Shown here: positions 230 to 39,230 of the stretch, piece by piece
Position numbering within the stretch: position 1 is the first letter of the stretch
Layout of the letters: each line of letters opens with the position of its first letter
NCBI GenBank assembly: GCA_043806015.1
Contig: JAZDHH010000008.1
Span: 37,695-101,694, forward strand
DNA from: Nanobdellota archaeon
Lineage (GTDB): Archaea; Nanobdellota; Nanobdellia; Woesearchaeales; JAHIVG01
Direction of reading: 5' to 3'
DNA length: 64,000 bases
The notes under the pieces: generated by a model
Seen by the model: only the letters and a program-made list of their open reading frames with translations
Database searches by the model: none
Told to the model about the DNA's origin: nothing
Translations under genes and position numbers: made by a program

Positions 230-598
230 CTAGCGGCGTTTTTCCATAGCCATCTTGCGCACGATTTCCTCTGTCCTGTTCTGGATCTTGCGCATGACCG
301 TGTAGATATGGAAGATGAGCCCCATCACCAGCATGAAGCCGAGGATGATGAAGAAGTCGATAGGCCTCTGCAGGTTGAGCACTTCCTTGACGAAGACGTT
401 CAGGCTCTCGGGGAAGATCGTGATGCCGAGGAACGCGGCCCAGAGCACGATCCACGCGACATACTCCTTGACCGTGAATTCCTTCCGTTTCTGGTGCAGG
501 AACGTGAGGTAGCCCATGAACAGGGCGAAGAGGATCCCCAGAATCTGGATGCCGCTCATGGCGTGCACCAGCCCGCCTTCGTATTTAAAGGTTTGCAC
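230..598 (-). CDS. Small multi-pass membrane protein, DUF2304-like (commonly partnered with GT2 genes)
   Basis: 122-aa ORF with 3-4 hydrophobic helices and a basic C-terminal tail. It lies downstream of a GT2 on the same strand. Confidence 0.65.
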   Translation of the reverse strand: MQTFKYEGGLVHAMSGIQILGILFALFMGYLTFLHQKRKEFTVKEYVAWIVLWAAFLGITIFPESLNVFVKEVLNLQRPIDFFIILGFMLVMGLIFHIYTVMRKIQNRTEEIVRKMAMEKRR

Positions 599-634
599 GA
601 AACTTATTTATAGTTCCACCCAATCCCCCGGCAT

Positions 635-1096
635 ATGACAAACGGGAGGCGCAAGGGATCGTCACCCGGGCCAAAGAATGCTTTTTTTCTCGATCCGCTT
701 TCTATCTCCGGAGCGGCCTTTCATTCCGGAGATGATGAACCTTCAGGCGAGCCCGATCTGTCAGGGATGGTCTCCTCGCCTGGCAATGGCGGACCACGTC
801 CAGAAGAGATTTTGGCTGAGAAGCTGGGAGGGCCTGCCTATAGGATAGACGATCTGATGGTCGCCTTGATGCACCCCGAGCTCGGGCTTTGCCCAGACAC
901 TTTCGGCGACCGCCCGGTTTTCAAATATCTTCGCCAGCATAGTCTGCTAGTCGACGCCTCCCGTCATGGGGCCTCTCCCCGGCCGGAATTCTGGATAATG
1001 GCGTCATCGATACCGCGGTTGGTTAGGGGTATGGACATCCCGCATCCGCCGGAGAAGATCCAGGAACTCCTGGCCCAGCAAGGGCCGATGTACTGA
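635..1096 (+). CDS. Hypothetical protein (doubtful)
   Basis: Only ORF of 60 aa or more in a 500-nt gap. The N-terminus is P/G/S-rich and no motif is recognisable. Confidence 0.25.
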   Translation: MTNGRRKGSSPGPKNAFFLDPLSISGAAFHSGDDEPSGEPDLSGMVSSPGNGGPRPEEILAEKLGGPAYRIDDLMVALMHPELGLCPDTFGDRPVFKYLRQHSLLVDASRHGASPRPEFWIMASSIPRLVRGMDIPHPPEKIQELLAQQGPMY

Positions 1097-1098
1097 TT

Positions 1099-1758
1099 CT
1101 AGACAATGCCCCTGCGCAGCCGCCAGAAGAGCATGTTGAACGCGATGCTGATGCCGTCGAGGACTGTGGTGCCTTTGTAATGGTCCGCGTACACGGTCGC
1201 GATCTTGACCGTGGCGTAGCGCAGGCGGTGCCTGCCGGCGTTCGCGATCATCTCGGATTCCATGCTGTAGTCAGCCGCCTTCCACCTGATTTTGCGGTAG
1301 GCGGCCGCGGTGAAGGCGCGGAAGCCGCACTGGGTGTCCTGCAGCTCGATGCCGAACAGGAAGAAGGTCATGAAGTCCAGGAGGCGGTTGCCGATGTTGA
1401 AGACCAGGGGCATCTTCGCGTTGAAGAGTCGCTGGCCGAAGACGATGTCATGGCCCTTGATGGCCCTGAGGAACCGGGGGATGTCGCGGGCGTCATGCTG
1501 TCCGTCGCTGTCCATGAGGACGATCATGGTTGCGTCCCTCTCGAGGGCGTAGTCGCAGCCCGTCTTCGCAGCCGCCCCCTTGCCCATGTTGACGATATGC
1601 CGCAGCACGATGACTCCTTCACGCTCAGCGACTGCGCTGGTGCCGTCGCTCGAGCCGTCGTCCACCACGATGACGTTCTTAGACTGCCTGCGCGCGGCGT
1701 CGATGACCTTGCCGATGCGCTTCGCCTCGTTGAAGGCGGGGATGATGATACAGAGCAT
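1099..1758 (-). CDS. Glycosyltransferase family 2 (dolichyl-phosphate sugar synthase-like)
   Basis: N-terminus MLCIIIPAFNEAKRIGKVIDA...VIVVDDGSSDGT, followed by the DSD motif (LMDSDGQHD) of GT-A fold GT2 enzymes. Confidence 0.9.
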   Translation of the reverse strand: MLCIIIPAFNEAKRIGKVIDAARRQSKNVIVVDDGSSDGTSAVAEREGVIVLRHIVNMGKGAAAKTGCDYALERDATMIVLMDSDGQHDARDIPRFLRAIKGHDIVFGQRLFNAKMPLVFNIGNRLLDFMTFFLFGIELQDTQCGFRAFTAAAYRKIRWKAADYSMESEMIANAGRHRLRYATVKIATVYADHYKGTTVLDGISIAFNMLFWRLRRGIV

Positions 1759-1815
1759 AGCAGCGACAGGGAATCAGAAGTTAATAAAGGTTAGCATCAG
1801 GGAAATGATTCAGAC

Positions 1816-1918
1816 TTGACGGTTTCCTTGGCGTGGAAGGGTGGGGGTTGCCCCCTACGGGGTACCCTTAGGACAGGCCGAAGGCCTGGCCGTCCACCGC
1901 CTTAAAGGAAATCGTCAA
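1816..1918 (+). other. About 103-nt structured element (candidate ncRNA)
   Basis: A 14-bp closing stem (1816-1829 with 1905-1918) encloses a second stem and two GC hairpins (GGGGG-UUG-CCCCC and AGGCC-GAA-GGCCU). Two positions are G-U on the plus strand but A-C on the minus strand, which favours a plus-strand transcript. Confidence 0.3.
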
Positions 1919-1925
1919 AGGAAAG

Positions 1926-1977
1926 AGAATGTGGAATAAAGCGGATCCATTAGAATGTGGAATAAAGCGGATCCATT
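1926..1977. repeat. Perfect tandem duplication of a 26-bp unit (AGAATGTGGAATAAAGCGGATCCATT x2)
   Basis: Read directly: 1926-1951 and 1952-1977 are identical. The repeat abuts the aglB stop codon at 1979-1981. Confidence 0.95.
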
Positions 1978-1978
1978 T

Positions 1979-4900
1979 CTATTTTATCTTCACGACCTTG
2001 ACGCGGAAATGAAGCGTCTTGTTGGCCAAGGGGTGGCTGCCGGTGTATCCCTCGCTCGTATCGACCGCGAAGGTCTTCTCCTCGTCGAGCTGCATGCCCA
2101 GGACGGCCTTATCGAAGCCTGGGATGACCTGGCCCTGGCCGAGCGTGAACGATAAATCGTTGTTGGCATACGCCGAGAAGTCTGCGGAAAGGGAATCCTG
2201 GTCCCATCCCTCGATGCTCGAGTCGAACACGGTCTGGTTGTCGAAGAAGCCGACATAGTCGAGCGTCACCGTGTCTCCTGTCTTGGCTTCGGTCTTGATC
2301 ACGAACTCGTCCATGACGATCGGGTCGCCGCCTTTCCAGTCTACCTTGTAGGTGTAGATGTCCGTGCCGGTGAAATGGGTCTCGTGAAGGAAAGAATTGA
2401 AATGCTTGAGGCCGTGGCCGCGGTAGAAGAACATGACCGTGAACATGCTGGCGGTGAGCTCTGGCTGCATGAAGATGGTCGCATAGCCTTCGCCGCGTGG
2501 CACCAGGGCGACCCCATACGGGAAATCGCTGGCATAGGTCTTCTTGTGCACGCCGTCCTTGTCCGCGTAGGCGAACGCCTTCGGCTTGGCAAGGCCTTGC
2601 GGGCTCATCACGGACGGCTCCATCGATGTGAGGTTCACGGTGAGGCCGTTGCCGCAGTCGGCGAGTTCGCCGGAGACGCTGCACGATCCGAGGCCGGAGG
2701 CGAAGTTGGGCCAGGGCGCGATCCAGGCGTTGCCTTCCTCATCGGTTGAGAGGCTCTGCACCTCGAAATAGATCTGCTCAGCATAATCCTCAGGGAAGCC
2801 GAAACTCTGTTCCATGAACCTCACTGCTTCATCCTTGTCCATGCTCCTGGCTTTCTGGTAGATGTCCGCATGGGTGAAGTTCCAGGAGCCGAAATGGGCC
2901 CAGACGCCCGCCTTGCCTATCAGGTCCTCGCTGGCGATGAAGTAGTCCGCCGGCGGGTCGCAATGCGTGTACTGCAGCACCTTGTTGGCGTTTACCGGGC
3001 CGAACCTCGTCGTGAGATAGGCCAGGGCTTCCGCCTTGTCCAGCTCGAAGATGGCATACAGGGTGTCTGTCGAGTTGTGGAAGTCATTCGTGATGGAGAA
3101 AAGCGTGTCGAAGGCGTTGTTGGCCCCGCAGTCGAGCATGCGCAGGATGCCGACCGCTTGCTCTTCATTGTCGGTCAGCAGCGTCTTGCCGATCCAGTGC
3201 GCCTGCGGCCGGTCTTGCGTGGTGCCGTCGAAGGTCACCGGGCGGTCTGCCAACGCCTTGAAATGGTGGCCGAAGTCCCACCAGGAGTTGATGACCGTGT
3301 TCTCCGGCCCCGGCTTCGAGTCGTCCCTGATGGTCGTGAGCGTCTTGTACCAGGCCTGGTTGATGATGGGCACGTCGCTCCGTGCCATTTGGTAGCTCGC
3401 GCGCGCCGGCGCGATCAGGATGATGCCGCAGAGCAGGACCAGGATGGTGATGGCTGCGACGCGGGGGAGCTTCAGCTCCTTGGCGAGATAGTTGCCGACG
3501 CCGCTGATGATCGCTGCGACGCACACGCCGAAGGCGATGCTGAACGCGGGGGAGAGCATCAGGGTGAAGCGGACGCCCTTGATGGTCGCGTAGATCGTGG
3601 ACACGAACCAGATGGTGAGCAGGATGGCGTACTTCGGGTCGATGGACGTGTCCTTGAGGTAGATGACAGAAAGGAACGTGGCGGCGATGGGCAGGCAGAG
3701 GAGCGCCAGGTAGGTGATAGCGGACATCTGCAGCATGCCGTCGGTGCTAAGCAGCAGGAACCATGCGATGGAGAAGAGGATGAGCCCCCAGCGGACACCG
3801 GCGCGCTTGACCTTCATGGCCATGGTGAGCGTGATGCCGAGCAGCGCGAGGACATAGACGAGCTTGCCGCCGAACTGCGCGACGACCGAGCTGGCATTCC
3901 CCGGATTCAGCTCGGCGACGGTCGTCAGGACGTTGGGCCAGAGCGTCCCCCGGATGGGAGCCTTGAGGTTCGTGATGCCGAAGAACTGCTTCGGGAACGT
4001 CAGGGCGGTATTGCCCTCGCCGAAGAGGCTTGCGATAGCGACGGTCACGAGGAAAAAGACAGCGAGGACAACAGCGGCGTTGACGATGGCCGGCGTGCGG
4101 ACGAAATGGCCAATGCCGCCCTTGAGCTCTTTGCGATGCGCCACCATGAAGAAGCCAAGGTAGGCGAGGCTTGCCAGAACCAGGAAGCCGAGGATGAACC
4201 ACCAGCCGCCCCAGGCGAAGGCGAAGAGCCCGGTGAGGCCGCCCGCCAGCGCGCTGAAGATGAGACGTGGCAAGGGCTTTTTCGCGTCCATGGCCATCAG
4301 GTAGACCCAGGTGATCGCGGCGCTGAAGAACACGACCCACGCGTCAGAGTCCGCGTGGCCCATGAGCGTGCGGTTCACGAAGGGGATGGTCACCGCGGCG
4401 AAGGTCGCGGCGAAGAGGCCGCCGACGTTCCCGGCGATCTTGCGGCCGATCAGGAAGATGAAGAGGACGGCGAGCGCTGAGACGATAAGCGGATAGTAGG
4501 CGATGGAGTCTAGAAGGGTAACCGACGGGTCGAAGAGCTTGACGACGGGGAAGAGCCCGGCGAGGAAGTAGGCATGCATCATGTCCGAGGGCATCTGCTT
4601 GCCGACCGGGGCGAGCATGTGGTCATCCCACCAGAAGCCGTCCTTGATGGTGTCTCCGGGATAGCCGTGCTTGTTCACATTCTTCGCGTAGCGGTACCAG
4701 AAGTAGGGGTCGATGTCCGGGATGAAATAGTGGCCGTCCTCGTCCTGGTAGGTCTGCCGGAAGAACTGGGCGGTCTGCCGTATGCCCTCCTTCATGTTGT
4801 CGGCGTTCTGCGCCTTGAAGCGGGTGAATTCGGCGTCGATGATGCTATTCTTGTTCTCGTCCGGCAGGTTGGGGTACTGGTTGTTGATCGCGCCAACGAT

Positions 4901-5194
4901 CTGGTTGCGGTAGTAGTTATCGACGCTCTGCCGTGCCCAGTCGTCCGCGACAGGAAGGTTGTGATTCCCGGCGCGGATCATGATGCTGAGAACAATGGGG
5001 ATGAGGATGAGCAGCACAACGCTGAAACGCTTGAAGAACTTGCCGGCGTCCTTCCAGTTGATGGAGATCTCGTCGCCCTCTTCCGGTTCCTTGGTCTTCT
5101 CGGCAGTGGGATGGTGCTCGACGTGCTGCTTCTTTGGTTTTTTCTTGAAGAGCTTGGTGATGCCGCTCAGATCGATAGTATCATCTTCGTCCAT
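1979..5194 (-). CDS. aglB: Archaeal oligosaccharyltransferase AglB (STT3 family) fused to a C-terminal FKBP-type peptidyl-prolyl isomerase domain
   Basis: 1071 aa with about 13 TM helices, then the WWDYG-type motif NSWWDFGHH (nt ~3266-3289). The last 99 aa (nt 1982-2278) read GDTVTLDYVGFF..VFDSS...FTLGQGQVIPGFDKAVLGMQLDEEKTF...LANKTLHFRVKVVKI, the FKBP signature. Confidence 0.9.
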   Translation of the reverse strand: MDEDDTIDLSGITKLFKKKPKKQHVEHHPTAEKTKEPEEGDEISINWKDAGKFFKRFSVVLLILIPIVLSIMIRAGNHNLPVADDWARQSVDNYYRNQIVGAINNQYPNLPDENKNSIIDAEFTRFKAQNADNMKEGIRQTAQFFRQTYQDEDGHYFIPDIDPYFWYRYAKNVNKHGYPGDTIKDGFWWDDHMLAPVGKQMPSDMMHAYFLAGLFPVVKLFDPSVTLLDSIAYYPLIVSALAVLFIFLIGRKIAGNVGGLFAATFAAVTIPFVNRTLMGHADSDAWVVFFSAAITWVYLMAMDAKKPLPRLIFSALAGGLTGLFAFAWGGWWFILGFLVLASLAYLGFFMVAHRKELKGGIGHFVRTPAIVNAAVVLAVFFLVTVAIASLFGEGNTALTFPKQFFGITNLKAPIRGTLWPNVLTTVAELNPGNASSVVAQFGGKLVYVLALLGITLTMAMKVKRAGVRWGLILFSIAWFLLLSTDGMLQMSAITYLALLCLPIAATFLSVIYLKDTSIDPKYAILLTIWFVSTIYATIKGVRFTLMLSPAFSIAFGVCVAAIISGVGNYLAKELKLPRVAAITILVLLCGIILIAPARASYQMARSDVPIINQAWYKTLTTIRDDSKPGPENTVINSWWDFGHHFKALADRPVTFDGTTQDRPQAHWIGKTLLTDNEEQAVGILRMLDCGANNAFDTLFSITNDFHNSTDTLYAIFELDKAEALAYLTTRFGPVNANKVLQYTHCDPPADYFIASEDLIGKAGVWAHFGSWNFTHADIYQKARSMDKDEAVRFMEQSFGFPEDYAEQIYFEVQSLSTDEEGNAWIAPWPNFASGLGSCSVSGELADCGNGLTVNLTSMEPSVMSPQGLAKPKAFAYADKDGVHKKTYASDFPYGVALVPRGEGYATIFMQPELTASMFTVMFFYRGHGLKHFNSFLHETHFTGTDIYTYKVDWKGGDPIVMDEFVIKTEAKTGDTVTLDYVGFFDNQTVFDSSIEGWDQDSLSADFSAYANNDLSFTLGQGQVIPGFDKAVLGMQLDEEKTFAVDTSEGYTGSHPLANKTLHFRVKVVKIK

Positions 5195-5226
5195 AAACCA
5201 TCCCTCGTTGCGAGGCGTTGGCGCTA

Positions 5227-5235
5227 TTATATAAA
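5227..5235 (-). promoter_or_regulatory. TATA-like box upstream of aglB
   Basis: Minus-strand TTTATATAA about 35 nt upstream of the ATG at 5194. Confidence 0.4.
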
Positions 5236-5237
5236 GA

Positions 5238-6308
5238 TTACCATGCCTTCGGCAGGAACGTCAGGAATCCAGGTTCGGCCGCGATGATCCCCAGGAGAGC
5301 GGAAAACGCGTTGTCGCGGTCGCTTTTCTCGACGATGGAGCGGACGCGCGGCTTCGCCGCGAGCTGGACGAGCCGGTCGAAATCCTGCTCCAGGAAGCGG
5401 CTCATGGCGCGCTGGACCCTCGTGTGCGCCCACAGCTGCAGGCCGAGATGGCGCCGCCAGAGCAGGGGATAGCTCCTTTTTTCGATGATCGCTTTCGAGG
5501 CGAGCGCCGCGCTGCCCATCCCGGTGATGATACCGCCACCGGTCGAGGCCTTGACCATGGCGGCAGCGTCGCCCACGAGATACGTGTGCCCTATCTGGGT
5601 CTTCACGCCGGACCGATGCAAGGGGATGAGGCCGCCCTGCTTCTCCATGACCTCAGCGTCTGGGAATTCCTGCCGGAGCAGGGAATCGAGCAGGCTGTGG
5701 CTCTTGTTTTCCGCCATAACGCCGATGCGCGCCATCGTTTTGCTTTCCGGCACCATCCACGCGAAAAGGCCGCAGCGCTTTCCCAGGAAGACGGTGTAGC
5801 GATGGGGATGATCAGCAGCAAGCTTGGCCCGCACCTGGGCCCCGACGAGGCAGCGGTTGCCCTGCCGGAACACGTGCTTTGCCACCGCCGAGAGCGGCCC
5901 GTCAGCGCCGATGAGGATGCCCTCCGGCTTGGAACTTTTCTTGCCGCCGTGGATAAGGCCGTCAGCATAACGGTGCCCAAGACGGAATCTCGCCCCCTCG
6001 TTTTTCGCGAGGCGTGCCAGGTATTTGTCAAAGGCGTCGCGCCGCAGGATGATCTCTGGCGTGCGGAGCCTGAACAGGGCTTGATGCCTCGCGCTTTTAA
6101 CGAAGACTTCGTCGATAGAGTTGGCGACGCACGGCTTCGGTAGTTTGACCAGCTTGGTGATGTTCTGCGTCACGACCCCCGTGCATTGCACCGGCATGCC
6201 GATGCTTGCATGATCCTCGAAGACATCGACCGAGAATCCGGCTTTGGCAAGGAGCAGGGCGGCATAGCTGCCGGAAGGACCGGCGCCGATTATTGTGACC
6301 TTGACCAT
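5238..6308 (-). CDS. Geranylgeranyl reductase family FAD-dependent oxidoreductase (digeranylgeranylglycerophospholipid reductase-like)
   Basis: MVKVTIIGAGPSGSYAALLLAKAGFSVDVFE is a Rossmann GxGxxG motif, and ...YLVGDAAAMVKASTGGGI is present. The start was moved to the ATG at 6308 (codon 45 of the ORF), directly before the FAD fold. An AT-rich box lies about 25 nt upstream. Confidence 0.85.
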   Translation of the reverse strand: MVKVTIIGAGPSGSYAALLLAKAGFSVDVFEDHASIGMPVQCTGVVTQNITKLVKLPKPCVANSIDEVFVKSARHQALFRLRTPEIILRRDAFDKYLARLAKNEGARFRLGHRYADGLIHGGKKSSKPEGILIGADGPLSAVAKHVFRQGNRCLVGAQVRAKLAADHPHRYTVFLGKRCGLFAWMVPESKTMARIGVMAENKSHSLLDSLLRQEFPDAEVMEKQGGLIPLHRSGVKTQIGHTYLVGDAAAMVKASTGGGIITGMGSAALASKAIIEKRSYPLLWRRHLGLQLWAHTRVQRAMSRFLEQDFDRLVQLAAKPRVRSIVEKSDRDNAFSALLGIIAAEPGFLTFLPKAW

Positions 6309-6371
6309 CTCCCCTAGAAAGCTCGGATTATTAAAAAGGGTTTCGGAATGTTTTTCCTTTATATTCCTCGA

Positions 6372-6380
6372 GAGGCGGGG
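6372..6380. repeat. Target-site duplication, left copy (GAGGCGGGG)
   Basis: An identical 9-mer is found at 11844-11852, immediately outside the terminal inverted repeats. Confidence 0.7.
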
Positions 6381-6542
6381 GGCTTTGCACATAAATCGAG
6401 AATTGCACATTTTTAAAGGCTGTTTGCATATTATTACCATTCAGATTCTTTCATCAGACAATGACATCACAACTGTCTTGAGAGTTCCGAAAGGCTTATT
6501 AAGTACCCCCACGTCCCATGCCTTGCGAAATCGTAAAGCAGC

Positions 6543-7199
6543 ATGAGTACCTTCAACGACTTGGTCATTGAGTCAGCCGAGCACCGGCTGATGATCATTC
6601 TGAAAGCTGTCCGAGAACACGAAGGGCTCCACTACGGCGACCTACAGCATGTCGTTGAAAAGGAGAAGCCGAGAGGTCTAAGTAGCACCACGTTCTGGCG
6701 AACCCTTAAGGATTGCAAGAACATGCAGCTCGTGAAAAATGGCACAGGCCACCGCCTCACTCAGGTCGGAGAACAATTTCTCAATGGGATAAACAAGCGC
6801 GAGGCGTACCTCAACGTGCCATTGTTCAGGGAGTGCTACGATGCTAATCCCGACGTCGATGACTACGAGAAGATCAGGAATTGGTTTCTGCCTAGGCTCA
6901 AGGACGCAGAGGAGCGAATGAGAGGCACAATCATTCGCCGCTACTTCGAGGGATTATACCCAAACATCAAGATTGGAAAGGGTCAGCGCGTCAACATCAA
7001 GCCAACTATTTCAGACTTCATCAACAATAATATCCATTCGCCAACGGCCTCTCCAAAGTCGGAAGGTACGACTGTATATGCTTTCTTGCGAAGCCATAAT
7101 CTCGATCATCAGCAAATGCTCGACGTGCTTAAGCTAGTCGGCGAGGTGAACGAAAAAGACCGGCCTGAGATACTCAGGCAACTAATGCAGAAAATGTAG
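6543..7199 (+). CDS. Winged-helix (wHTH) DNA-binding protein, function unknown (transposon cargo)
   Basis: 218 aa. The N-terminal ~85 aa (LMIILKAVREHEGLHYGDLQHVV...TFWRTLKDCKNMQLV) look like a MarR/ArsR-type wHTH. Confidence 0.55.
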   Translation: MSTFNDLVIESAEHRLMIILKAVREHEGLHYGDLQHVVEKEKPRGLSSTTFWRTLKDCKNMQLVKNGTGHRLTQVGEQFLNGINKREAYLNVPLFRECYDANPDVDDYEKIRNWFLPRLKDAEERMRGTIIRRYFEGLYPNIKIGKGQRVNIKPTISDFINNNIHSPTASPKSEGTTVYAFLRSHNLDHQQMLDVLKLVGEVNEKDRPEILRQLMQKM

Positions 7200-7632
7200 A
7201 TGATGGAGAGAGAATGGGAGTTCCCCGACACGATCCTCTGAGGCGTCGCCAAGGAGGGGCGTCCAACCCAGGTTGGACCATGTCAAATTCCCGTTCCTCC
7301 AACATCCTTGATGAAGACTGAGCATTGAGGGGAGCAACGTGTCCCTCTGACTCTGCCTGCCGTGGAAGGTGGGCAGGCACTCAGGAGTGGAATACGCCCT
7401 CATGCTCCTTCATTAGCTTAAGGGGCGACAATGCGCAGGTTGCGAAATCGATAAAGCAAGAAGCCTTATCACCTGCGCCGCCGCTTAAGCGTATAAACCT
7501 ATACTAGGTTATAAAGCTTTTTAAGAGGTCTTTTGTGTGGTATAATTAACAAATTCGATTAAATGAGAGGTAAAATGACCATTTAACTGCAGGTTGAAAA
7601 GTTATTAATATAGAATATCCTTTTTCAGAAGA

Positions 7633-7818
7633 ATGAAGGAAAAAAAACATAATGAAGTTAAAACCAAACGGATAATGGTCGTAAATGGAAGGCAAATATG
7701 TCCTAGATGCGGTGAAAAACTTAATATAGAAAAAACCACTTTTAAATTTTATAAGATGACTAACGATTATAAACATTCCTTTTATAGATGCTCAAAGTGT
7801 GGTTTTTTCCAACTATGA
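7633..7818 (+). CDS. Small zinc-ribbon protein
   Basis: 61 aa with CPRC...CSKC cysteine pairs, in an AT-rich context. Confidence 0.4.
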   Translation: MKEKKHNEVKTKRIMVVNGRQICPRCGEKLNIEKTTFKFYKMTNDYKHSFYRCSKCGFFQL

Positions 7819-7854
7819 TTATACTATTTCTAGTAAATAAGTGACTTAGTTGAG

Positions 7855-7917
7855 TTTGTCCTTCATTTCAGACTTTGTCCGGTATGTCATCTTTGTCCGA
7901 GAAGAAGTAATCTGTCC
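7855..7917. repeat. Four iteron-like direct repeats TTTGTCC(G) spaced 18-19 nt apart
   Basis: Copies at 7855-7861, 7874-7880, 7892-7898 and 7911-7917 (the last reads TCTGTCC), between two convergent cargo genes. Confidence 0.6.
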
Positions 7918-7958
7918 GAAAAGTTATTCAGGCGACTTTAATTGGTGGGACGTGAGCG

Positions 7959-8435
7959 TTAGCGTCGCACGTGGCTTTGGAGGGGGGAGGTTTCTATGGT
8001 TTTTTTAAGCAAAGAGGCTATGCTTCGTGATGGAGAAAACCTCCAATCTGATGGAATCTCGGGAAAGTCCATTAATGAAAGTCTATCTCCGGTGACCATT
8101 CTTCCGAAAGAAAAACGCCAACGTTGTAGATTGATAAGTGTCGCATAGAGAAAAAGTTCATCATCGTCCATTTCTTCTTTTGGAACCAAAACAGTGAGAC
8201 CACTTCCCCCATTACCTCTGGGCAAGAATGGAGGGTTTTGGACTGTTGCCTCACAAAATGCTGATACACAAATGCATTTATTTCGGAAAATCTTTTCTTT
8301 AGGAAGAGGGGTGATATATCCGACTACACCATTGTTTACGAAGCTATTGGATACAAAAGGCATTGTTCCAGTTTCGTGGTCGTCAAATCCTTTTGAACGT
8401 GCGTTGAGAACATCGAATCTTGTAGGTAATTTCAT
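7959..8435 (-). CDS. Single target-recognition-domain protein (HsdS half-subunit-like), translationally coupled to the methyltransferase
   Basis: The ATG at 8435 overlaps the methyltransferase TGA (ATGA at 8435-8432). GTMPFVSNSFVNNGVVGYI......LTVLVPKEEMDDDELFLYATLINLQRW resembles type I S-subunit TRDs. Confidence 0.5.
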   Translation of the reverse strand: MKLPTRFDVLNARSKGFDDHETGTMPFVSNSFVNNGVVGYITPLPKEKIFRNKCICVSAFCEATVQNPPFLPRGNGGSGLTVLVPKEEMDDDELFLYATLINLQRWRFSFGRMVTGDRLSLMDFPEIPSDWRFSPSRSIASLLKKTIETSPLQSHVRR

Positions 8436-10345
8436 TGTGCTCCACCCATCTTTCTGACCACAAAGCAAGCATAATCTATTAGGCGTTCATTCATTTCCTT
8501 TCCAAGAATTTCTGTGCTTAATTGATTATCGGGCATATAAACTTCAGGAACAAGCTCAAATAATGGGCTATTGAAATCCACAGGGCAGGCATAGCAGATT
8601 CGCGGAACCTTCCGAACAGATATGTTCTGATTTTCTATGAATGATTTAAGCAATTCCGTATACGTTTCAAAATCGTTCGGTTCCTCAGATGAAGGAACTC
8701 TTTTTCCTTTCTTTTTAATGGATCCATCTCGTAGCAATCGTAACCATAACACCTTTTGTTGTCTAGGATGAGGAACACCCTTTTTTACAAATATTCCTAT
8801 TGTTTCGACAGCCACAGGATAAAACAATTCGGGAGGGAATGTAATGACCGACAATAGGGTGTTATGCTCTAATAATTCAGATAATCGCCAGTTCTTATCT
8901 TCTCCTCCCTCAACCATGACAGATACTGGCAATACGCTAAAAAGGATGCATCTATCCTGCATTTGCTCCAACGCGTGCTGAATGAATTTATACTCTTTTT
9001 CATCGTTTTTCTTGAGAGCAAAGGGAGGATTCATTAACACTTTCGTAGCGCCAGGACTTCTAACCCTCGGCAGGGAATCATTATTAAACAACTGGGCGCT
9101 TAACCTCCCGCCAACTGTTTTCGCTATAAGTGATTTTGAAAAGCAGTTTCCCTCCGTGATATTATTTTTTCCGTCTCCACGAAATATCATATTTACTATT
9201 GCTAATGCAGCCACTTCGGGTTCTTGTTCTACGCCAAATAGACCATTATTCTTGAAATATTCTACGTCATCAGAACGAGCGGTTTTTCTTGCATTGTCGA
9301 AAGCCGCAACGAGAAATCCTCCAGTTCCGCAAGTAGGGTCAAAAACAACATCACGATGCGATACGTTCAAGATGCTCGCCGCGAATCGCGTTATGTGTCT
9401 GGGTGTCAGGACTATACCTATTTCTTTCGCACCGTTTCCATATTTCAGGAACACCTCGTAGAAGCTGCCTAATACGTCTGTTCCTGAGTTCATAGCAGAA
9501 CGTATATTGAGGTTTTCTAACTCAAGAATAGTTTTCACTAACGCATTTTTAAATTTGATGTGGTTATCTTGACTTGGGGGGAGAGCAATTTTTATGCAAT
9601 CGAAAAACTCTTGTTTTCTATTTCTTATTAGTATGTTCTCTGCTCGGGAATTAATTTCTTGAATCAATACTCGCGGAGCGGCATCAACATTCGGACGAGT
9701 ATCATCTACCATTGAAAGAAGCAATGCTGCCATTACGCGAGCGCGTTGGTTTTTGTTAATTGCTCCAATATGAAGTATTTTGTTTATCTCTTCTGCTGCA
9801 CGTAAGAATAACTGTTCATCAATAGGCAGATCCTCTATTTCAGGGGAGTTTGCTTCGAGTATTAGGCGTGCGAGTGTTGGTGAAACGAAACCTGTTATCT
9901 CTTTACCATTGATTGTTATTGTGTGATATGTTCCGTTTTTCAAGAATTTACTCTTGACAAGAAAGCCGTCTGTTGAGTTACCAGCGACACCAGATATTAT
10001 TCTTGCTTTCAATATTCTACTCGCGTTAATCTTTCCGGCATAATCGTTTTCCGCCTCGGTAAGTGCCTGTGAAATCTGATCTTTATTTCTTTTCGCTTCA
10101 ATTACATACAACTCTGATTCTGTAATCTTGACGATGTTCTCTGGATGCGCTCTTACCAAGAAACGTTTTATCTCTTCATTGTCCAAACATTCTGTTTGAG
10201 TATATACCTGCCCCGCCGCTACCCTGTTAGGATTTTTAATGTTCCATCCTTGAATTGCTAAATATTCCTTGATGAACGCGTAGGCATCAACTTCCGAGTT
10301 TCTCGCTCGTGGCATGGGTATCACGGGAATATTTTCAAGGGGCAA
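8432..10345 (-). CDS. Fused PD-(D/E)XK nuclease-like domain plus N6-adenine DNA methyltransferase (type IIG / type I-like R-M enzyme)
   Basis: 637 aa. The N-terminus reads ...HPENIVKITESELYVIEAKRN (E...ExK nuclease motif). AdoMet motif I is VFDPTCGTGGFLV and catalytic motif IV is VLMNPPF. Confidence 0.8.
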   Translation of the reverse strand: MPLENIPVIPMPRARNSEVDAYAFIKEYLAIQGWNIKNPNRVAAGQVYTQTECLDNEEIKRFLVRAHPENIVKITESELYVIEAKRNKDQISQALTEAENDYAGKINASRILKARIISGVAGNSTDGFLVKSKFLKNGTYHTITINGKEITGFVSPTLARLILEANSPEIEDLPIDEQLFLRAAEEINKILHIGAINKNQRARVMAALLLSMVDDTRPNVDAAPRVLIQEINSRAENILIRNRKQEFFDCIKIALPPSQDNHIKFKNALVKTILELENLNIRSAMNSGTDVLGSFYEVFLKYGNGAKEIGIVLTPRHITRFAASILNVSHRDVVFDPTCGTGGFLVAAFDNARKTARSDDVEYFKNNGLFGVEQEPEVAALAIVNMIFRGDGKNNITEGNCFSKSLIAKTVGGRLSAQLFNNDSLPRVRSPGATKVLMNPPFALKKNDEKEYKFIQHALEQMQDRCILFSVLPVSVMVEGGEDKNWRLSELLEHNTLLSVITFPPELFYPVAVETIGIFVKKGVPHPRQQKVLWLRLLRDGSIKKKGKRVPSSEEPNDFETYTELLKSFIENQNISVRKVPRICYACPVDFNSPLFELVPEVYMPDNQLSTEILGKEMNERLIDYACFVVRKMGGAQ

Positions 10346-10556
10346 CTGAGGTATTTGAATGCTTTACGGTCGAATGTCTTGTGGTTATTTGACCAGTGAT
10401 TTCGGCTTTCTTATTGGATTTCCGGGGCATTTTCCAGTAGGGGCTCTTGCATTTTGGGCATATTATTGGTTCAGTCTCTTTTTTTGTTCTTGGTATCCAT
10501 TCGTGGCCACATCTTTCGCATTTGTAGCCTTCGACAGTGATCTTGATCTTTGCCAT
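10335..10556 (-). CDS. Zinc-ribbon protein heading the R-M-like operon
   Basis: 73 aa with CERCGHEW...CPKCKSPYW. It overlaps the methyltransferase start by 11 nt. Confidence 0.55.
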   Translation of the reverse strand: MAKIKITVEGYKCERCGHEWIPRTKKETEPIICPKCKSPYWKMPRKSNKKAEITGQITTRHSTVKHSNTSVAP

Positions 10557-10688
10557 GACTTTGACAATGTTTTACTCCTTTAAATAACTTTCTAAAGATT
10601 TGTTTATAAAGACTATTCTTTTATAAGTAATTTTACGATAAATTTATATATAAGTTATACTTATATAAGTTATACCTAACAAGGTAGG

Positions 10689-11831
10689 GTGATAAAGATT
10701 ATAAATCAGATCGCAATCACCGAACAAGAACTACACAGAAAGGTGAAAGAGCTATTAGGGTTAATAAACAATGTTGGAACGCCAGAACACAAAAAGCTGG
10801 CAGCAGAACTTCTTGATACATACACTGCTATAAACGCAAAGGGCAAAGAAAAAACCACTTACTCTCAGGAATGGCACGCCTACAATCAAGCCCAGCAGAA
10901 GGAGAAGATCATGCTGATGAGTCTCCTCGATGAGCTACTGAGCTACATTCGCTTTCCAGACAACAAAGGAATCGGTAGACACCCAATTTCATTGCGAGAT
11001 CGCATCTTCTATTTAGCAATGCAGTGCTATAACACGAAAAGCTCCCGGAGATGCATCAGCGACTTGGAAATAGCTAAAAAGCTTGGATACGTCACAAAAT
11101 CACCTCACTTTAATACAGTTCTAAAAATCCAAAAAGACCCCGAATTGACCAAGTACCTCATGCACCTGGTAAAAGTCGCAGGAATCCCCTTACAGAAGGT
11201 TGAGCACGACTTTGCCATCGATAGTTCTGGATTCTCCACGTCACAGTTCGGCAGGTGGTTCGATGTAAGATTAGGCTCTGAGAATGAAAAACGAACCTAC
11301 AAGAAAGTCCACCTGACCTGCGGAGTCATCACAAACATCATCACCGCTGTCAAAATTACGCCAGGAACTTGCAATGATTCCCCTGAACTCCCGAGCCTTG
11401 TCCGACAGACTATTGGTCTCTACAATGTTAGGGAGGTCAGCGCAGACAAAGGATACATCAGCGTCGAGAACCTTGAGACGATCTGGGACCTTGGCGCAAT
11501 CCCCTTTATCCCGTTCAAGGAGAATGTTCGGCAGAATAGCCGTCACGGAATGGTCTGGAAGAAGATGCTTAAGTTCTTCACCGAATATCCCGAAGAATTT
11601 TATCACCACTATCACAAACGGAGTAACGTAGAGAGCACCTTTAATATGCTCAAGCGCAAGTTTGGAAGCCATCTCCGAAGCAGATCTGAGGTTGGTCAAG
11701 CTAACGAGATTCTGGCAAAATGCCTTTGCCATAACCTCTGTGTCCTCATTCAAGAAGCTTTTGAACAAGGAATAGACCTAGATTTTAAAAAATGTGCAGA
11801 AATTGAGATTGCACATAATCAGACTATTTAA
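10689..11831 (+). CDS. DDE transposase, IS4/IS5 superfamily
   Basis: 380 aa with ...AIDSSGF..., ...VSADKGY... and the Y(2)R(3)E(6)K signature YHKRSNVESTFNMLK. GTG start. The stop codon lies inside IR-R. Confidence 0.9.
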   Translation: MIKIINQIAITEQELHRKVKELLGLINNVGTPEHKKLAAELLDTYTAINAKGKEKTTYSQEWHAYNQAQQKEKIMLMSLLDELLSYIRFPDNKGIGRHPISLRDRIFYLAMQCYNTKSSRRCISDLEIAKKLGYVTKSPHFNTVLKIQKDPELTKYLMHLVKVAGIPLQKVEHDFAIDSSGFSTSQFGRWFDVRLGSENEKRTYKKVHLTCGVITNIITAVKITPGTCNDSPELPSLVRQTIGLYNVREVSADKGYISVENLETIWDLGAIPFIPFKENVRQNSRHGMVWKKMLKFFTEYPEEFYHHYHKRSNVESTFNMLKRKFGSHLRSRSEVGQANEILAKCLCHNLCVLIQEAFEQGIDLDFKKCAEIEIAHNQTI

Positions 11832-11843
11832 ATGTGCAAAGCC

Positions 11844-11852
11844 GAGGCGGGG
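11844..11852. repeat. Target-site duplication, right copy (GAGGCGGGG)
   Basis: Identical to 6372-6380. Confidence 0.7.
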
Positions 11853-11923
11853 ATAAAATTTAAAAAGAAGTACTCATTTTAGGGTAGTAATAAAATATTC
11901 ACGCGAAGAGGGGGCGAAATAGC

Positions 11924-14395
11924 ATGGATACCATTGATGATCTTAACCCTATTGATCAAGGTCTTGAAGAGGCCCGAGGTCACTTCAGACGGCGTATGAG
12001 ATTTTCAGCTGCTGCCTCATTGTTCGCTTTTCTCCTTGGAACCGTGCCTCCCGCATTTGCGACCGCTCAACAGGATCCGCAGAAAAAGGAGCCGGTCGGC
12101 ACTACGACAATCATAAAAGGTGTCCCTCAAACATACGAAATCGGAACCGTCGAGGGGTCGATTCAAGCCGATGAGGTAGACGGGCTGAAGCCACTTTTTT
12201 ATGAATGGGTCACCCTTCCGGATAGTACCAAAGAGATGGCAATAGTGAGAGATCGGTATGGCCTCTTCAGGAGCGGCGACTTTAAGGCTCGCGGCACCTG
12301 GCTGGACAGCGCCGGTTTGCCTGATTCAGTCCGCGAGGGCGATGCGGAACAGGTTACCCTTCCCTACGCTCCTCGCGGGACGCCGAGGATTGTCTTTCGG
12401 AATCCGGCGATGACCGAAGCCATCCAGGACGGTTATCTCTCTGCGGAGGAAACGCGGGCGATTGGTCCTGGCCTCTACGCGGGTTATGAATCCTTCGATG
12501 CGAACCCGGATGCAGGTATCTTGCTGCCAGAATCGATTAGGCTGCTCATTCACATCACCGGAGAAGAATCTGTTTTGGAGCGGAAAGTGATTGCACGCGC
12601 TCGAGAGATTGCTGATACGCATAATACCCCGGAACATCCGTACCAGCCAGAAAAGCTGGAAAAACTTGGCGATTTGCTGCACGAATACGACCTGCTCCTG
12701 ACGGAACGCGACAGCATGAAGGTCGAAGTCGATCTAATCAAATTCAATGGCAAGGGGATGACCGCCGAGGAAGCGGAGAGACACATCGGCGACCTGGAAA
12801 AGCGCTTGGCCTCCTTGAGGGACGGGCTAAGTGAGAAAACGACGCTTTTATTGGATGAGTCTAGGCGCGTGAGTGAATATCTCACCACCTCAGGCAAAGG
12901 AAATGTTGATGTAACAAGTGGAACAATCGCTGGTGCGGACCTCTCGGTGAGACGCTTCATCGGGGGGAAGCCTCGATCGGTCACGCTCAGAGACAGCACG
13001 CAGCTCCATCTCTTGCCAGCACAACTCGCTACTTTGGGAGTGGAAGGAAGTTATGAGCCGGACAAATGGGCGGGTCTCGGGACCCTGGAGATCCCCTTTG
13101 GCAGTCCCTTGCTCGTAGTGAGCGGAGGTATCAGCGGTGTCTCTTCAGCATCTTCCTTCGCTCGCTCGCATGACGAGGAACAGGGATGGGTTTCGCAAAC
13201 GATTGATGAACAGGGATATCAAGATCAAAACATCTTGCGGCTCTTGGCAGGATTAGGGCTGCGATGGGGTCGCGTCGCAGGTGATGTGAAATATGTCCGC
13301 GTCGAGAGAAGTGATGAGATCCAGGCTATCACCGACATCTTAACGACGACCCCTCTCGGCTCGGAAAAACGTCGGTATCAAGTCATGCATGCTGAAGACA
13401 CGAATGCAAATATCGGCACAGGTTCATTGACCTTACAGGCGCTCCAGCACTTGTATTTGACCGGACGCCTCCGCCTCCAATCCATTGACGGAAGCGGTCT
13501 TCGCGAGCAAACGTCCATCGCAACCGGGCATGATTCCATCCCTAATGTGAACAAAGCCGATATGCGGCTAAAAGACGGCTCCAGGACAGGGTGGGGGGCA
13601 GAGTTGGGTTATCAGCCAGAGCATGCCCGCCTCTTGTTGGCCTATTTTTCGAGCAGGGGAGATGTTGAGCGTAATGAGAGATGGAATATCAATCCCCTTC
13701 AGGGGACTTTCACCACGAACCTTTGGATGCCGGAATATGCGCATGAATCAGTCGTCATGTCAGGTTCGTGTGACCTTGGCAATCTCCGCCTCCTGGCGCA
13801 CGGCTCCTATGACGATTCCGGGATTGACACCGAGCTGAGGATCGATGGCGAGCTCACTCGCCTCGCGCATGAAGGGACGATCCGACGTGCCGGCAATCTC
13901 GGCCTTTATTGGAGGATGACAGAAGATGTCGCATCCCTGCTCCAGGGGATTGAGCTGCGGAGGATAATGGACGATGACGAGCTCATCCAGGCGTTCACCG
14001 GCCGCCGCCCCCATGAGGATGTCTACCGTCCAGGCATGGGAACCGTCAGGGCGAGAGGGCTCTGGAGAACCGATCGGGCCTCAGAGCAAGATGCTATCGC
14101 GGCAACCAATCGATCGGACAAGATCGATGTCTATGGCGTAACAGTTGAGGGTCTCGTCCCGCTGGGACGGATCTCTTTGGGGACAGGTGCGACGTATGAA
14201 AAGGAAAAGAGGAAAACCGCAGGAGAGCCTCTTCATCCGCACAACGATACAGGATATCGCTTTCATATTGCTCCTGTCGGAGTCATCCCCGTCGGCCATC
14301 TGGATCTATTGTTGAAGGTCGATCTTCAATGGAACCCAGCATTCGATGGAAAACATAGCGGTGGTCGGATAAGTGTCGGTTACGGAGGTCGGTAA
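11924..14395 (+). CDS. Secreted or membrane-anchored hypothetical protein with a beta-strand-rich C-terminal half
   Basis: 823 aa. It has an N-terminal anchor/signal (FSAAASLFAFLLGTVPPAFATAQQ). A GAGGGGG SD-like element and an AT-rich box lie upstream. Its stop is 1 nt before the next gene's ATG. Confidence 0.7.
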   Translation: MDTIDDLNPIDQGLEEARGHFRRRMRFSAAASLFAFLLGTVPPAFATAQQDPQKKEPVGTTTIIKGVPQTYEIGTVEGSIQADEVDGLKPLFYEWVTLPDSTKEMAIVRDRYGLFRSGDFKARGTWLDSAGLPDSVREGDAEQVTLPYAPRGTPRIVFRNPAMTEAIQDGYLSAEETRAIGPGLYAGYESFDANPDAGILLPESIRLLIHITGEESVLERKVIARAREIADTHNTPEHPYQPEKLEKLGDLLHEYDLLLTERDSMKVEVDLIKFNGKGMTAEEAERHIGDLEKRLASLRDGLSEKTTLLLDESRRVSEYLTTSGKGNVDVTSGTIAGADLSVRRFIGGKPRSVTLRDSTQLHLLPAQLATLGVEGSYEPDKWAGLGTLEIPFGSPLLVVSGGISGVSSASSFARSHDEEQGWVSQTIDEQGYQDQNILRLLAGLGLRWGRVAGDVKYVRVERSDEIQAITDILTTTPLGSEKRRYQVMHAEDTNANIGTGSLTLQALQHLYLTGRLRLQSIDGSGLREQTSIATGHDSIPNVNKADMRLKDGSRTGWGAELGYQPEHARLLLAYFSSRGDVERNERWNINPLQGTFTTNLWMPEYAHESVVMSGSCDLGNLRLLAHGSYDDSGIDTELRIDGELTRLAHEGTIRRAGNLGLYWRMTEDVASLLQGIELRRIMDDDELIQAFTGRRPHEDVYRPGMGTVRARGLWRTDRASEQDAIAATNRSDKIDVYGVTVEGLVPLGRISLGTGATYEKEKRKTAGEPLHPHNDTGYRFHIAPVGVIPVGHLDLLLKVDLQWNPAFDGKHSGGRISVGYGGR

Positions 14396-14396
14396 G

Positions 14397-21585: not shown

Positions 21586-21629
21586 CGACGAAAGGTATAT
21601 ATATGAGTTCCTCTTCTGGAGTAGCGACA

Positions 21630-25086: not shown

Positions 25087-25111
25087 GTTGTTATTCCCTA
25101 GCAGTAATTTT

Positions 25112-39148: not shown

Positions 39149-39230
39149 GGGAACTGAAGGCCCTGAATCGAAAAGCTTTTAAATGCCATTTGCGGTTACA
39201 GACCCATTGATTAAAAAAAGGGTGGTGTGA

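Follow-up and report, generated by a model that had tools for sequence, protein, structure and literature searches.

An archaeal oligosaccharyltransferase AglB with a fused C-terminal FKBP-type prolyl isomerase domain

The window analysed here, a stretch of 64,000 nucleotides from a Nanobdellota archaeon, contains a gene in which an oligosaccharyltransferase (OST) of the AglB/STT3 type seems to continue directly into an FKBP-type peptidyl-prolyl isomerase (PPIase). This raises the question of whether the fusion is real and, if so, what a PPIase would do on the enzyme that glycosylates secreted proteins. The gene and its parts are as follows.

1979..5194, minus strand: complete aglB-FKBP gene, 1071 codons plus the stop at 1979-1981
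5027..5194, minus strand: N-terminal cytoplasmic tail, aa 1-56, lysine-rich (KLFKKKPKKQH)
3380..5026, minus strand: multi-pass GT-C membrane domain, aa 57-605 (Pfam STT3, aa 140-594)
4709..4717, minus strand: first acidic motif, D160-I-D162, in external loop 1; aligns with the D of 'EFDPYF' in human STT3A
4343..4351, minus strand: second acidic motif, D282-S-D284; aligns with 'DNE' of STT3A
3911..3922, minus strand: EL5 motif T425-V-A-E428, which corresponds to SVSE/TIxE and is invariant at all four positions
2330..3379, minus strand: extracytoplasmic C-terminal globular AglB domain, aa 606-955; alpha-helical core plus beta-barrel
3269..3283, minus strand: WWDFG, aa 638-642, a WWDYG-type sequon-binding motif; position checked by translation
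2282..2329, minus strand: linker GDPIVMDEFVIKTEAK, aa 956-971 (16 aa); poorly conserved, mean identity 0.28
1982..2281, minus strand: FKBP-type PPIase domain, aa 972-1071, of the short type; has the archaeal 'bulge' insert but no IF/flap insert
2015..2023, minus strand: conserved sequon N1058-K-T in the FKBP domain; 34/37 family members

The reading frame at 1979-5194 on the minus strand encodes 1071 amino acids with zero internal stops, and both Pfam domains score above their cut-offs, confirming the claim of the initial annotation that AglB reads through into the FKBP. The extent first given for the FKBP domain, nt 1982-2278, agrees with the nt 1982-2281 (aa 972-1071) obtained by translation. 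M1 is invariant in an alignment of 37 sequences. The STT3+FKBP architecture is shared by 116 of the 120 best database homologues, and the fusion is present in 30 of 76 complete species-level loci. The exact window protein occurs on one contig only, as might be seen if aglB had been joined to a separate FKBP gene by chimeric assembly or by an overlooked stop or frameshift. We consider the chance of this to be negligible. Junction and linker position are identical in more than 100 independent protein clusters, and the same junction recurs in the 30 species-level genomes, which come from many studies. Composition shows no break at the junction, GC3 being continuous across it (0.90/0.86/0.84). Across the loci the next gene is the GT2 glycosyltransferase, which starts directly after the FKBP stop, and in no locus does a stand-alone FKBP gene adjoin aglB. 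The closest relative of the window protein (P0002) is present in five independent sources, including Logan re-assemblies. Since the same architecture is found both in the best homologues and in the 30 genomes, the fusion is not an artefact but natural and real, and a frameshift, missed stop or chimera at the junction is in practice excluded.

The body of the protein is assigned to STT3 by Pfam (PF02516, aa 140-594, E = 8.7e-31, 108.3 bits against a cut-off of 24.5). TIGR04154 (archaeo_STT3) gives 73 bits against a cut-off of 450, which places the protein outside the archaeosortase-A-linked TIGR04154 subfamily. In the AF2 model of the fusion protein (pLDDT 87.9, pTM 0.81), aa 1-43 are disordered (pLDDT <50), and the multi-pass N-terminal domain and outside globular domain of the GT-C fold are both seen. 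Foldseek matches this body, with a probability of 1.0, to PglB 6gxc (E = 4e-18), AglB 7e9s (E = 8e-14) and STT3A/B (E values of 1e-14 to 1e-11). The GT-C fold with an outside globular domain is common to the window protein, Archaeoglobus fulgidus AglB-L (3WAJ/7E9S), Campylobacter lari PglB (3RCE/6GXC) and human STT3A (6S7O), as are acidic EL1/EL2 motifs, an SVSE-type EL5 motif and a WWDYG-type motif. Both acidic metal/acceptor-binding motifs, of EL1 (DxD) and EL2 (DxD/DxE), are present; among 37 sequences I161, D162, D282 and D284 are invariant and D160 nearly so. TVAE, which would supply the catalytic Glu of the EL5 motif, was assigned by motif and position; the residues after it are 'LNP', and the loop that contains it connects the transmembrane (TM) helices at aa 406-443. 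The WWDFG motif aligns with WWDYG of STT3A, with W638, W639, D640 and G642 invariant, and the globular domain has four invariant cysteines (C689, C745, C838 and C847). The window protein differs from known OSTs in an extra helical EL1 insert of about 70 residues (aa 78-150 of the membrane domain) and in the Ser/Thr-pocket motif of the DK or MI type (DxxKxxx[MI] or MxxIxxx[IVW]), for which there is no clear counterpart. No part of the family is better conserved than the candidate, S755-x-D757-x-x-G-K761-x-G-V-W765, in which the spacing is altered to DxxxK. With 108 bits to STT3 and DID, DSD, TVAE and WWDFG all in place, the initial assignment of the body holds, and we propose that the gene encodes an archaeal OST predicted from its motifs to be catalytically competent. 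The second STT3-like gene of the same genome (L002, 748 aa, 34.5 bits) was considered as an alternative OST and rejected because the WWDxG motif was not seen on reading its sequence; it is likely to be a GT-C enzyme of another kind.

Solved and characterised OSTs all lack the C-terminal PPIase domain of the window protein, and tail-less AglB homologues terminate within the linker region, aa 956-971. For the last ~100 residues, the profile search and structure prediction named by the initial annotation as checks agree on an FKBP. Pfam FKBP_C (PF00254) covers aa 968-1067 with E = 8e-18 and 65 bits in the whole protein (cut-off 21.1), and with the tail alone reaches 71.8 bits over profile positions 3-93 of 94. 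The modelled strands (975-983, 1014-1017, 1039-1044, 1061-1070) and helix (1025-1031) form the FKBP fold, which Foldseek matches to FKBP13 (4nnr_A; TM 0.77 on target, rmsd 3.4, 29% identity) and FKBP12 (4ipx; TM 0.71). A match to archaeal short FKBPs had also been claimed, and this stands in part. The best solved-structure sequence match is MtFKBP17 (1ix5, E = 5e-11), an archaeal short-type FKBP with which the tail shares the 'bulge' insert between the FDSS motif and strand 3, the change of W59 to F and the C-terminal HPLxxK..F motif. The IF/flap chaperone insert is missing: the alignment to 1ix5 covers residues 5-84 and then jumps to 123-149, and the tail has only 100 residues. Judged by these alignments, the tail is related to archaeal short-type FKBPs without having their full architecture. 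MtFKBP17, Methanocaldococcus jannaschii FKBP18 (3PR9) and Escherichia coli SlyD are cytoplasmic and carry the insert, which gives SlyD and MtFKBP17 high protein-folding activity, whereas the tail would lie outside and lacks it. Fusion to a membrane enzyme and conserved sequons for N-glycosylation further set the tail apart from these three proteins.

The residues that line the FKBP12 pocket (Y26, F36, D37, F46, V55, I56, W59, Y82, H87 and F99) correspond to Y980, F990, D991, L1014, V1023, I1024, F1027, Y1050, H1054 and F1063. The equivalents of Y26, D37, Y82 and F99 are invariant in all 37 homologues (~40% identity), those of F36, I56 and H87 are kept in 35-36, and the W59 position is F in 33, as in microbial FKBPs. 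Mean pairwise identity in the FKBP domain (0.486) equals that of the catalytic soluble domain (0.486) and exceeds that of the TM core (0.41). Purifying selection evidently acts on the proline-binding pocket. FKBP12 R42 and the 80s-loop residues I90/I91 have no counterpart in the tail and, since the IF insert is absent as well, activity on protein substrates could be low.

An extracytoplasmic location of the PPIase, as the initial annotation had proposed, is supported by several features. No hydrophobic segment follows aa 605 (maximum KD19 1.13), and the tail is continuous with the outside domain that bears WWDFG. The N-K-T sequon is kept in 26 of 29 species-level tails, whereas its Asn position is G or S in cytoplasmic FKBPs, and this contrast also supports an outside location. 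By homology, absence of further TM segments and conserved sequons, the tail thus probably lies on the extracytoplasmic side.

Among 301 evenly sampled genomes of the phylum, 33 (about a tenth) carry the fusion, and these belong to six families, all within the window's own order. AglB-FKBP is therefore no singleton but a widespread lineage trait of Woesearchaeota-type DPANN archaea. The tails co-diverge with the AglB core (Spearman r 0.50; 0 of 2000 permutations as high), and the fusion has evidently been inherited vertically. On the unrooted tree tail presence needs six changes, at least four of them forced by well-supported branches; this fits an old fusion with repeated loss, gains and losses being inseparable on such a tree. 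About half of the closest AglB relatives (39/76) lack a PPIase tail. Their genomes show no pattern of compensation: a short stand-alone FKBP was found in 7 of 12 tail-less and 4 of 13 fusion genomes, and a parvulin in 0 of 12 and 2 of 13, respectively. The stand-alone PPIases of these genomes resemble the usual cytoplasmic IF-type or Par10-type, and a separate FKBP or parvulin ORF, as gene fission would leave, was found within 6 kb of aglB in none of 80 loci. Since so many close relatives are tail-less without a compensating FKBP or parvulin, the tail is dispensable in many lineages.

These tail-less relatives bear on the idea that the FKBP folds or stabilises only AglB's own outside domain and has no role on other proteins. 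Fusion would ensure 1:1 stoichiometry and proximity, and the outside domain offers, besides its invariant cysteines, several conserved prolines. However, related AglB cores (~40-50% identity, same motifs) fold without a tail in the 39 loci, and a permanent domain under purifying selection that matches the catalytic domain's in strength would be a costly provision for one folding event. We therefore regard a purely internal role as improbable.

Around aglB lies a conserved cassette, which is found at tail-less loci too.

5238..6440, minus strand: upstream FAD-dependent geranylgeranyl-reductase (GGR)-like protein, 400 aa; homologue in 56/80 loci
1099..1758, minus strand: downstream GT2 glycosyltransferase, 219 aa; 71/80 loci
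230..598, minus strand: downstream DUF2304 small membrane protein, 122 aa; 66/80 loci

The GGR-like protein is a candidate polyprenol/dolichol reductase, and the GT2 enzyme may function as a dolichyl-phosphate glycosyltransferase. The figure given in the initial annotation for this window, over 9000 codons of surface proteins saturated with sequons, is borne out only in part. Four ORFs with signal peptides (14373-20138, 21603-24173, 29120-39148 and 39231-43268; 7,464 aa in total) are indeed enriched in sequons 2.4-3.5 fold over expectation, but two other large ORFs, 11924-14395 and 25088-28576, showed no enrichment when tested. It is plausible that the neighbouring giant glycoproteins are clients of the FKBP tail. 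The tail is not the only outside PPIase, since the same genome encodes a cyclophilin with a lipobox signal peptide (lipoprotein-type), which could serve as a general outside foldase.

In some relatives the AglB junction is occupied by a different PPIase. A non-homologous parvulin takes the place of the FKBP in three of the proteins and loci compared (P0027, L064 and L078) and in seven further protein clusters. It is closest to bacterial periplasmic SurA/PpiD-type foldases, with ~50% identity to their parvulin domains. This replacement at the same junction points to selection for the PPIase or foldase function itself. A parvulin could equally do the job of folding AglB's own domain discussed above; the replacement would be hard to explain had a specific interface between the FKBP and a partner been selected.

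Such an interface is central to another reading, in which a non-catalytic FKBP pocket docks the proline segment of a partner and so positions AglB or regulates its choice of sites. Candidate partners would include an S-layer protein, a component of the translocon and other factors of glycosylation. There is a precedent in human FKBP11, the only FKBP whose docking next to an OST has been solved. In that structure of the secretory translocon with STT3A (OST-A; PDB 9N9J), CCDC134 buries the FKBP11 pocket next to STT3A, and the authors make the case for an adaptor and against isomerase action (PMC12804085). The 9n9j structure is among the Foldseek matches of AglB-FKBP, neither the IF insert nor the 80s-loop tip is present in the tail, and half of the relatives manage without it. 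Conversely, besides the parvulin, the catalytic-type equivalents of D37 and Y82 are strictly invariant, and no conserved partner gene can be seen beyond the GGR/GT2/DUF2304 cassette, itself present at tail-less loci. On balance an adaptor role seems unlikely, if less so than a role confined to AglB itself. FKBP11 and the tail are alike in placing an FKBP on the non-cytoplasmic side beside an STT3 catalytic subunit during translocation and glycosylation. FKBP11, however, is a separate single-pass protein that binds non-covalently and in a ribosome-dependent manner with its pocket filled by CCDC134, whereas the tail belongs to the OST chain itself. Convergence may account for the resemblance, which does not imply homology of the association.

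With moderate confidence, we favour a role in which the tail, tethered to the OST outside the cytoplasm, would serve secreted glycoproteins as a foldase or holdase. The FKBP would hang from the outward-facing globular domain of AglB by the flexible linker of ~16 residues, which would place it at the outer surface of the cytoplasmic membrane and at a distance of a few nanometres from the active site of the OST. Anchored to the membrane in this way, the PPIase would be a foldase and/or a transient holdase for unfolded secreted polypeptides, timed around N-glycosylation of the secreted chain; S-layer and giant adhesin-like surface proteins would be the likely clients. In this we infer the PPIase activity, the identity of the clients and the kinetic coupling of isomerisation or holding with glycosylation. 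It is conceivable, and we put it forward only tentatively, that the tail is coupled to catalysis: its binding or isomerisation of prolines in nascent secreted chains close to the active site would keep sequons unfolded and accessible or release them in a folding-competent state.

Two known arrangements resemble such a foldase. PrsA of Bacillus subtilis and SurA/PpiD of Gram-negatives are membrane-anchored or periplasmic parvulin foldases and, as the tail would be, extracytoplasmic PPIases at the outer face of the membrane for chains leaving the Sec translocon; their anchor is a lipid or a TM helix rather than an enzyme, and the link to glycosylation is absent. Ost3/Ost6 (TUSC3/MagT1), thioredoxin-like subunits of the eukaryotic OST, are thought to delay or steer folding and so keep sequons accessible. 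They too attach a folding-related catalytic domain to the OST, but as separate subunits that act by thiol-disulfide exchange, whereas the tail is of the prolyl isomerisation type, fused and unrelated in sequence.

The initial annotation was not aware of a description of the fusion. Our literature search, judged by titles and abstracts, found no paper describing an AglB/STT3-FKBP fusion; public databases, however, already contain the architecture, often under no other name than 'FKBP-type peptidyl-prolyl cis-trans isomerase', and it is a recurrent lineage trait. On proteins of ~1100 aa this name hides the main, possibly the only, oligosaccharyltransferase. Few genomic signs of functional coupling are as reliable as a gene fusion, and the presence of two unrelated PPIases, FKBP and parvulin, at the same junction argues that at least one large archaeal lineage benefits from having folding catalysed, or chains held, where glycosylation takes place. 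If the coupling to catalysis is true, a single DPANN polypeptide would correspond to what eukaryotes have at the translocon as an 'OST plus folding factor' module (Ost3/6, FKBP11), and the independent capture of an FKBP and a parvulin would represent convergent glycosylation-folding coupling. The fusion offers a simple single-polypeptide system for the co-ordination of glycosylation and folding, which is hard to study in the multi-subunit eukaryotic translocon, where FKBP11 has been observed next to STT3A only recently. Extracytoplasmic protein folding is poorly understood in Archaea, where the tail may be an extracytoplasmic FKBP foldase, and the finding bears on the way in which DPANN symbionts, with their reduced genomes, produce surface proteins that are very large and heavily glycosylated.

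The gene at 1979..5194 (minus strand) is one open reading frame of 1071 codons with no internal stops, in agreement with the initial annotation, which had described an AglB body running into an FKBP domain. Pfam searches of the encoded protein identified STT3 at aa 140–594 (E 8.7e-31, 108 bits), a second, weak match to the STT3/PglB core at aa 634–686, and FKBP_C at aa 968–1067 (E 8e-18, 65 bits). When the final 113 aa were scanned alone the FKBP_C score was 72 bits, which assigns the last ~100 aa to FKBP by profile search, and NCBIfam independently recognized an STT3-type body followed by a trigger-factor/FKBP-type PPIase tail. The position proposed for the FKBP domain (nt 1982–2278) and the WWDFG motif both proved correct when checked against the translation:

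nt 3269–3283, minus strand: WWDFG motif
nt 1982–2281, minus strand: FKBP domain (aa 972–1071)

The membrane, soluble and FKBP domains have GC3 values of 0.90, 0.86 and 0.84, respectively; hence the gene shows no compositional seam.

The body belongs to the STT3/AglB family and shows five of its defining features. Alignment with human STT3A and with 37 family sequences placed D160-I-D162 in external loop 1 (EL1), with I161 and D162 invariant and D160 nearly so, and D282-S-D284, both aspartates of which are invariant. T425-V-A-E428 in EL5 is invariant in the family alignment, and W638-W-D-F-G642 completes the catalytic set. The DK/MI motif is not clearly recognizable; no stretch of the family is more highly conserved than the best candidate, S755-x-D-x-x-G-K-x-G-V-W765, whose spacing is odd. 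An AlphaFold2 model built from the 37-sequence alignment was confident (mean pLDDT 87.9, pTM 0.81), with disorder only at aa 1–43, and Foldseek matched it to PglB 6gxc (E 4e-18), Archaeoglobus fulgidus AglB (7e9s/3wak) and yeast and human STT3. A helical insert of ~70 aa in EL1 (aa 78–150, nt 4745–4963) precedes the DID motif, is conserved in the family (mean identity 0.35) and is missing from aligned human STT3A; to our knowledge it is not present in solved PglB and AglB structures. A precomputed PF27869 match in some homologues may correspond to this insert. The only other STT3-like gene of the genome (L002:1234–3480, plus strand, contig C23 of G000, the window's own genome; 748 aa, 34.5 bits) has no WWDxG visible on reading its sequence. 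This GT-C paralogue is probably not an oligosaccharyltransferase (OST), so the window gene is probably the OST of the organism.

Every solved OST has a single active site on the non-cytoplasmic face, built from the WWDYG domain together with the acidic residues of EL1 and EL5. No hydrophobic segment follows the last transmembrane helix, whose end is near aa 605 (maximum 19-residue Kyte–Doolittle mean beyond it 1.13), and the FKBP domain must therefore lie on the same side as the WWDFG domain. The last strand motif of the tail, ‘HPLxNKTLxF’, contains the sequon N1058-K-T, found in 34 of the 37 family members and 26 of 29 species-level tails; sequons also occur at aa 1001 (23/37) and aa 986 (19/37). 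In cytoplasmic FKBPs the Asn position of the N1058 sequon is Gly or Ser, as in 1ix5 (‘HELAGKDL’) and the genome's own 209-aa FKBP (‘HPLSSKDV’). The conserved sequons are an independent indication of an outside location; the soluble domain of AglB also has four invariant cysteines, which are compatible with such a location. The extracytoplasmic placement proposed at the outset is thus supported.

The closest solved relative of the tail in sequence is the archaeal short-type MtFKBP17 (1ix5, E 5e-11). The alignment spans the archaeal ‘bulge’ insertion and contains no counterpart in the tail of the IF/flap chaperone insert of MtFKBP17. The predicted fold of the tail matches FKBP13 (4nnr, target-normalized TM 0.77) and FKBP12 in Foldseek, and most positions of the FKBP12 pocket have a counterpart.

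Pocket positions of human FKBP12 and their counterparts in the tail, with conservation over 37 homologues
Y26: Y980, 37/37
F36: F990, 35/37
D37: D991, 37/37
F46: L1014, L or F
V55: V1023, V in 21/37
I56: I1024, 36/37
W59: F1027, F in 33/37 (the usual microbial substitution)
Y82: Y1050, 37/37
H87: H1054, 35/37
F99: F1063, 37/37
R42 and I90/I91: no counterpart

Profile, fold and pocket all place the tail in the FKBP family; as aligned, it falls short of the complete archaeal short-type (IF-bearing) architecture. Mean pairwise identity among the 37 homologues is 0.486 for the FKBP domain, equal to the 0.486 of the catalytic soluble domain (transmembrane core 0.41, linker 0.28). This equality and the retention of the pocket indicate that the tail is under purifying selection focused on the ligand pocket.

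A search of ~5.8 billion proteins with aa 620–1071 gave 1312 matches; FKBP_C was present in 116 of the 120 best, nearly all with STT3 too. The fused homologues come from many studies, with assemblies from NCBI, JGI, ENA and Logan, and most are labelled Woesearchaeota or Nanoarchaeota. Woesearchaeota-type AglB and its cassette also occur in many MAGs titled ‘uncultured Methanosarcinales archaeon’ (the loci L005, L008, L014, L017 and others; binchicken co-assemblies), organism labels that are probably wrong. When GTDB species were scanned, with one genome for each, at least 568 genomes contained a relative of the window AglB. Among full frames from the best 80 of these loci, 30 end in FKBP, two in parvulin and 39 within 0–54 aa past the AglB core; five have other long tails (DUF4352 in one) and four are incomplete. 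Of 301 genomes sampled evenly over the phylum, 33 gave a match that extends from the AglB beta-barrel to the end of FKBP. Almost all of these matches lie in open frames of ~1000–1200 aa; three are truncated by contig ends. The 33 genomes are confined to the window's own order, across six families; the other orders of the class gave only short stand-alone FKBP frames in this sample. The junction lies constantly ~15–20 residues past the conserved ‘KVDWxG’, and a GT2 gene begins directly after the aglB stop in every locus examined. Given this recurrence across assemblies, the constant junction and the GT2 neighbour, an artefactual origin of the fusion is very unlikely, to the point of being negligible.

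The gene belongs to a conserved cassette (230–6440, minus strand) of a GGR-like flavoprotein, aglB, a GT2 glycosyltransferase and DUF2304, in that order; the GGR-like gene may encode a polyprenol/dolichol reductase. In 80 related loci, with or without a tail, homologues of the GGR-like, GT2 and DUF2304 genes occur 56, 71 and 66 times respectively. The aglB–GT2 gap (1759–1978) is 220 nt in the window and a few nt in several relatives (such as loci L009, L011 and L018), and has no Rfam match at the gathering threshold. Two islands of low GC (6000–12000 and 28000–30000; 0.39–0.47 versus ~0.6 elsewhere) were noted. The first, beside the glycosylation cassette, encodes an N6 DNA methylase (8432–10345, minus strand) and a DDE transposase (10689–11831, plus strand) and is probably horizontally acquired DNA. 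Rfam placed a tRNA at 56261–56385 (minus strand, 52 bits, full model), whose 125-nt span implies an intron; ARAGORN reported no tRNA in the window.

In an unrooted maximum-likelihood tree of the AglB core (aa 140–955, 78 sequences), FKBP-tailed proteins occur in both major halves, and the tail state requires six changes, of which well-supported branches impose four or more. Pairwise identities of tail and core are correlated (Spearman 0.50; none of 2000 permutations as high). Together, these results fit an old, vertically inherited fusion with repeated loss, on a tree that, being unrooted, cannot separate gain from loss. Parvulin-tailed relatives (cluster P0027 and loci L064 and L078) occupy three separate positions, and a dedicated search found seven further full-length STT3–parvulin clusters and one fragment. 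The AglB relatives with a C-terminal parvulin are listed here:

P0027, P0121–P0124, P0126, P0127 and P0155 (protein clusters), L064:7645–8244 and L078:8623–9222: AglB–parvulin, PF13616/PF00639, 85–105 bits

The parvulin occupies the junction at which the window protein has FKBP. Its ~50% identity to its closest relatives, bacterial SurA/PpiD-type periplasmic foldases, suggests that it is a captured bacterial domain. Two unrelated PPIase families share the attachment site on this enzyme's linker, which argues most strongly that PPIase or foldase function, rather than an FKBP-specific structural feature, would be the target of selection. Another relative (L040:8908–9507) ends in DUF4352 (73 bits) in place of a PPIase, and four (L045, L069, L072 and L075) have tails of 80–120 aa without a Pfam match.

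We consider it fairly probable that the tail would be an OST-tethered extracytoplasmic PPIase, a foldase and/or transient holdase acting on secreted polypeptides around the time of their glycosylation. Its closest analogies in mode of action would be anchored foldases of the PrsA/SurA type and the folding-related accessories of eukaryotic OST (Ost3/6; FKBP11 at OST-A). Against this reading stand the absence of the IF insert and the fact that about half of the closest relatives have no tail; a comparison of 12 tail-less with 13 fusion genomes revealed no compensating extra FKBP or parvulin gene. A non-catalytic adaptor is the role preferred by the authors for human FKBP11 at OST-A (9n9j), the sole solved FKBP beside an OST (PMC12804085); for the archaeal tail we regard it as rather unlikely. 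That the tail serves as an in-cis chaperone of AglB itself appears quite improbable. The tail is probably not the sole outside PPIase of the genome, which also encodes a 181-aa cyclophilin (L088:1399–1944, plus strand, contig C17 of G000; PF00160, 194 bits). This protein starts with a lipoprotein-like signal, ‘MNRYMLLLTCIFLIGC’, bearing a lipobox, contains sequon-like N-X-S/T triplets and is probably a second extracytoplasmic PPIase.

Candidate clients of the tethered PPIase in the window are four signal-peptide proteins of 1921, 856, 3342 and 1345 aa. Among them they contain repeats of the PKD, Ig-like, cadherin-like, NosD and beta-helix types, and their sequons number 44, 14, 164 and 91, respectively, versus 19, 4, 54 and 27 expected from composition. 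The 3342- and 1345-aa proteins are encoded by adjacent giant secreted frames (29120–43268, plus strand) with 4.9 and 6.8 sequons per 100 aa, ~3 times the expectation; the former has NosD/beta-helix, He_PIG, Big_9 and cadherin-like repeats, and the latter no Pfam match.

The view that the fusion was undescribed holds in part. None of the papers listed by full-text search appeared to describe it, in a coverage that leaves out much subscription literature, so that absence is not proof; the architecture is, however, already in public databases, hidden under uninformative names, many homologues being called only ‘FKBP-type peptidyl-prolyl cis-trans isomerase’. AglB–FKBP represents a clear ‘Rosetta-stone’ fusion, to which the analogous parvulin swap lends further weight, and makes the coupling of glycosylation and folding directly testable in a one-polypeptide system.
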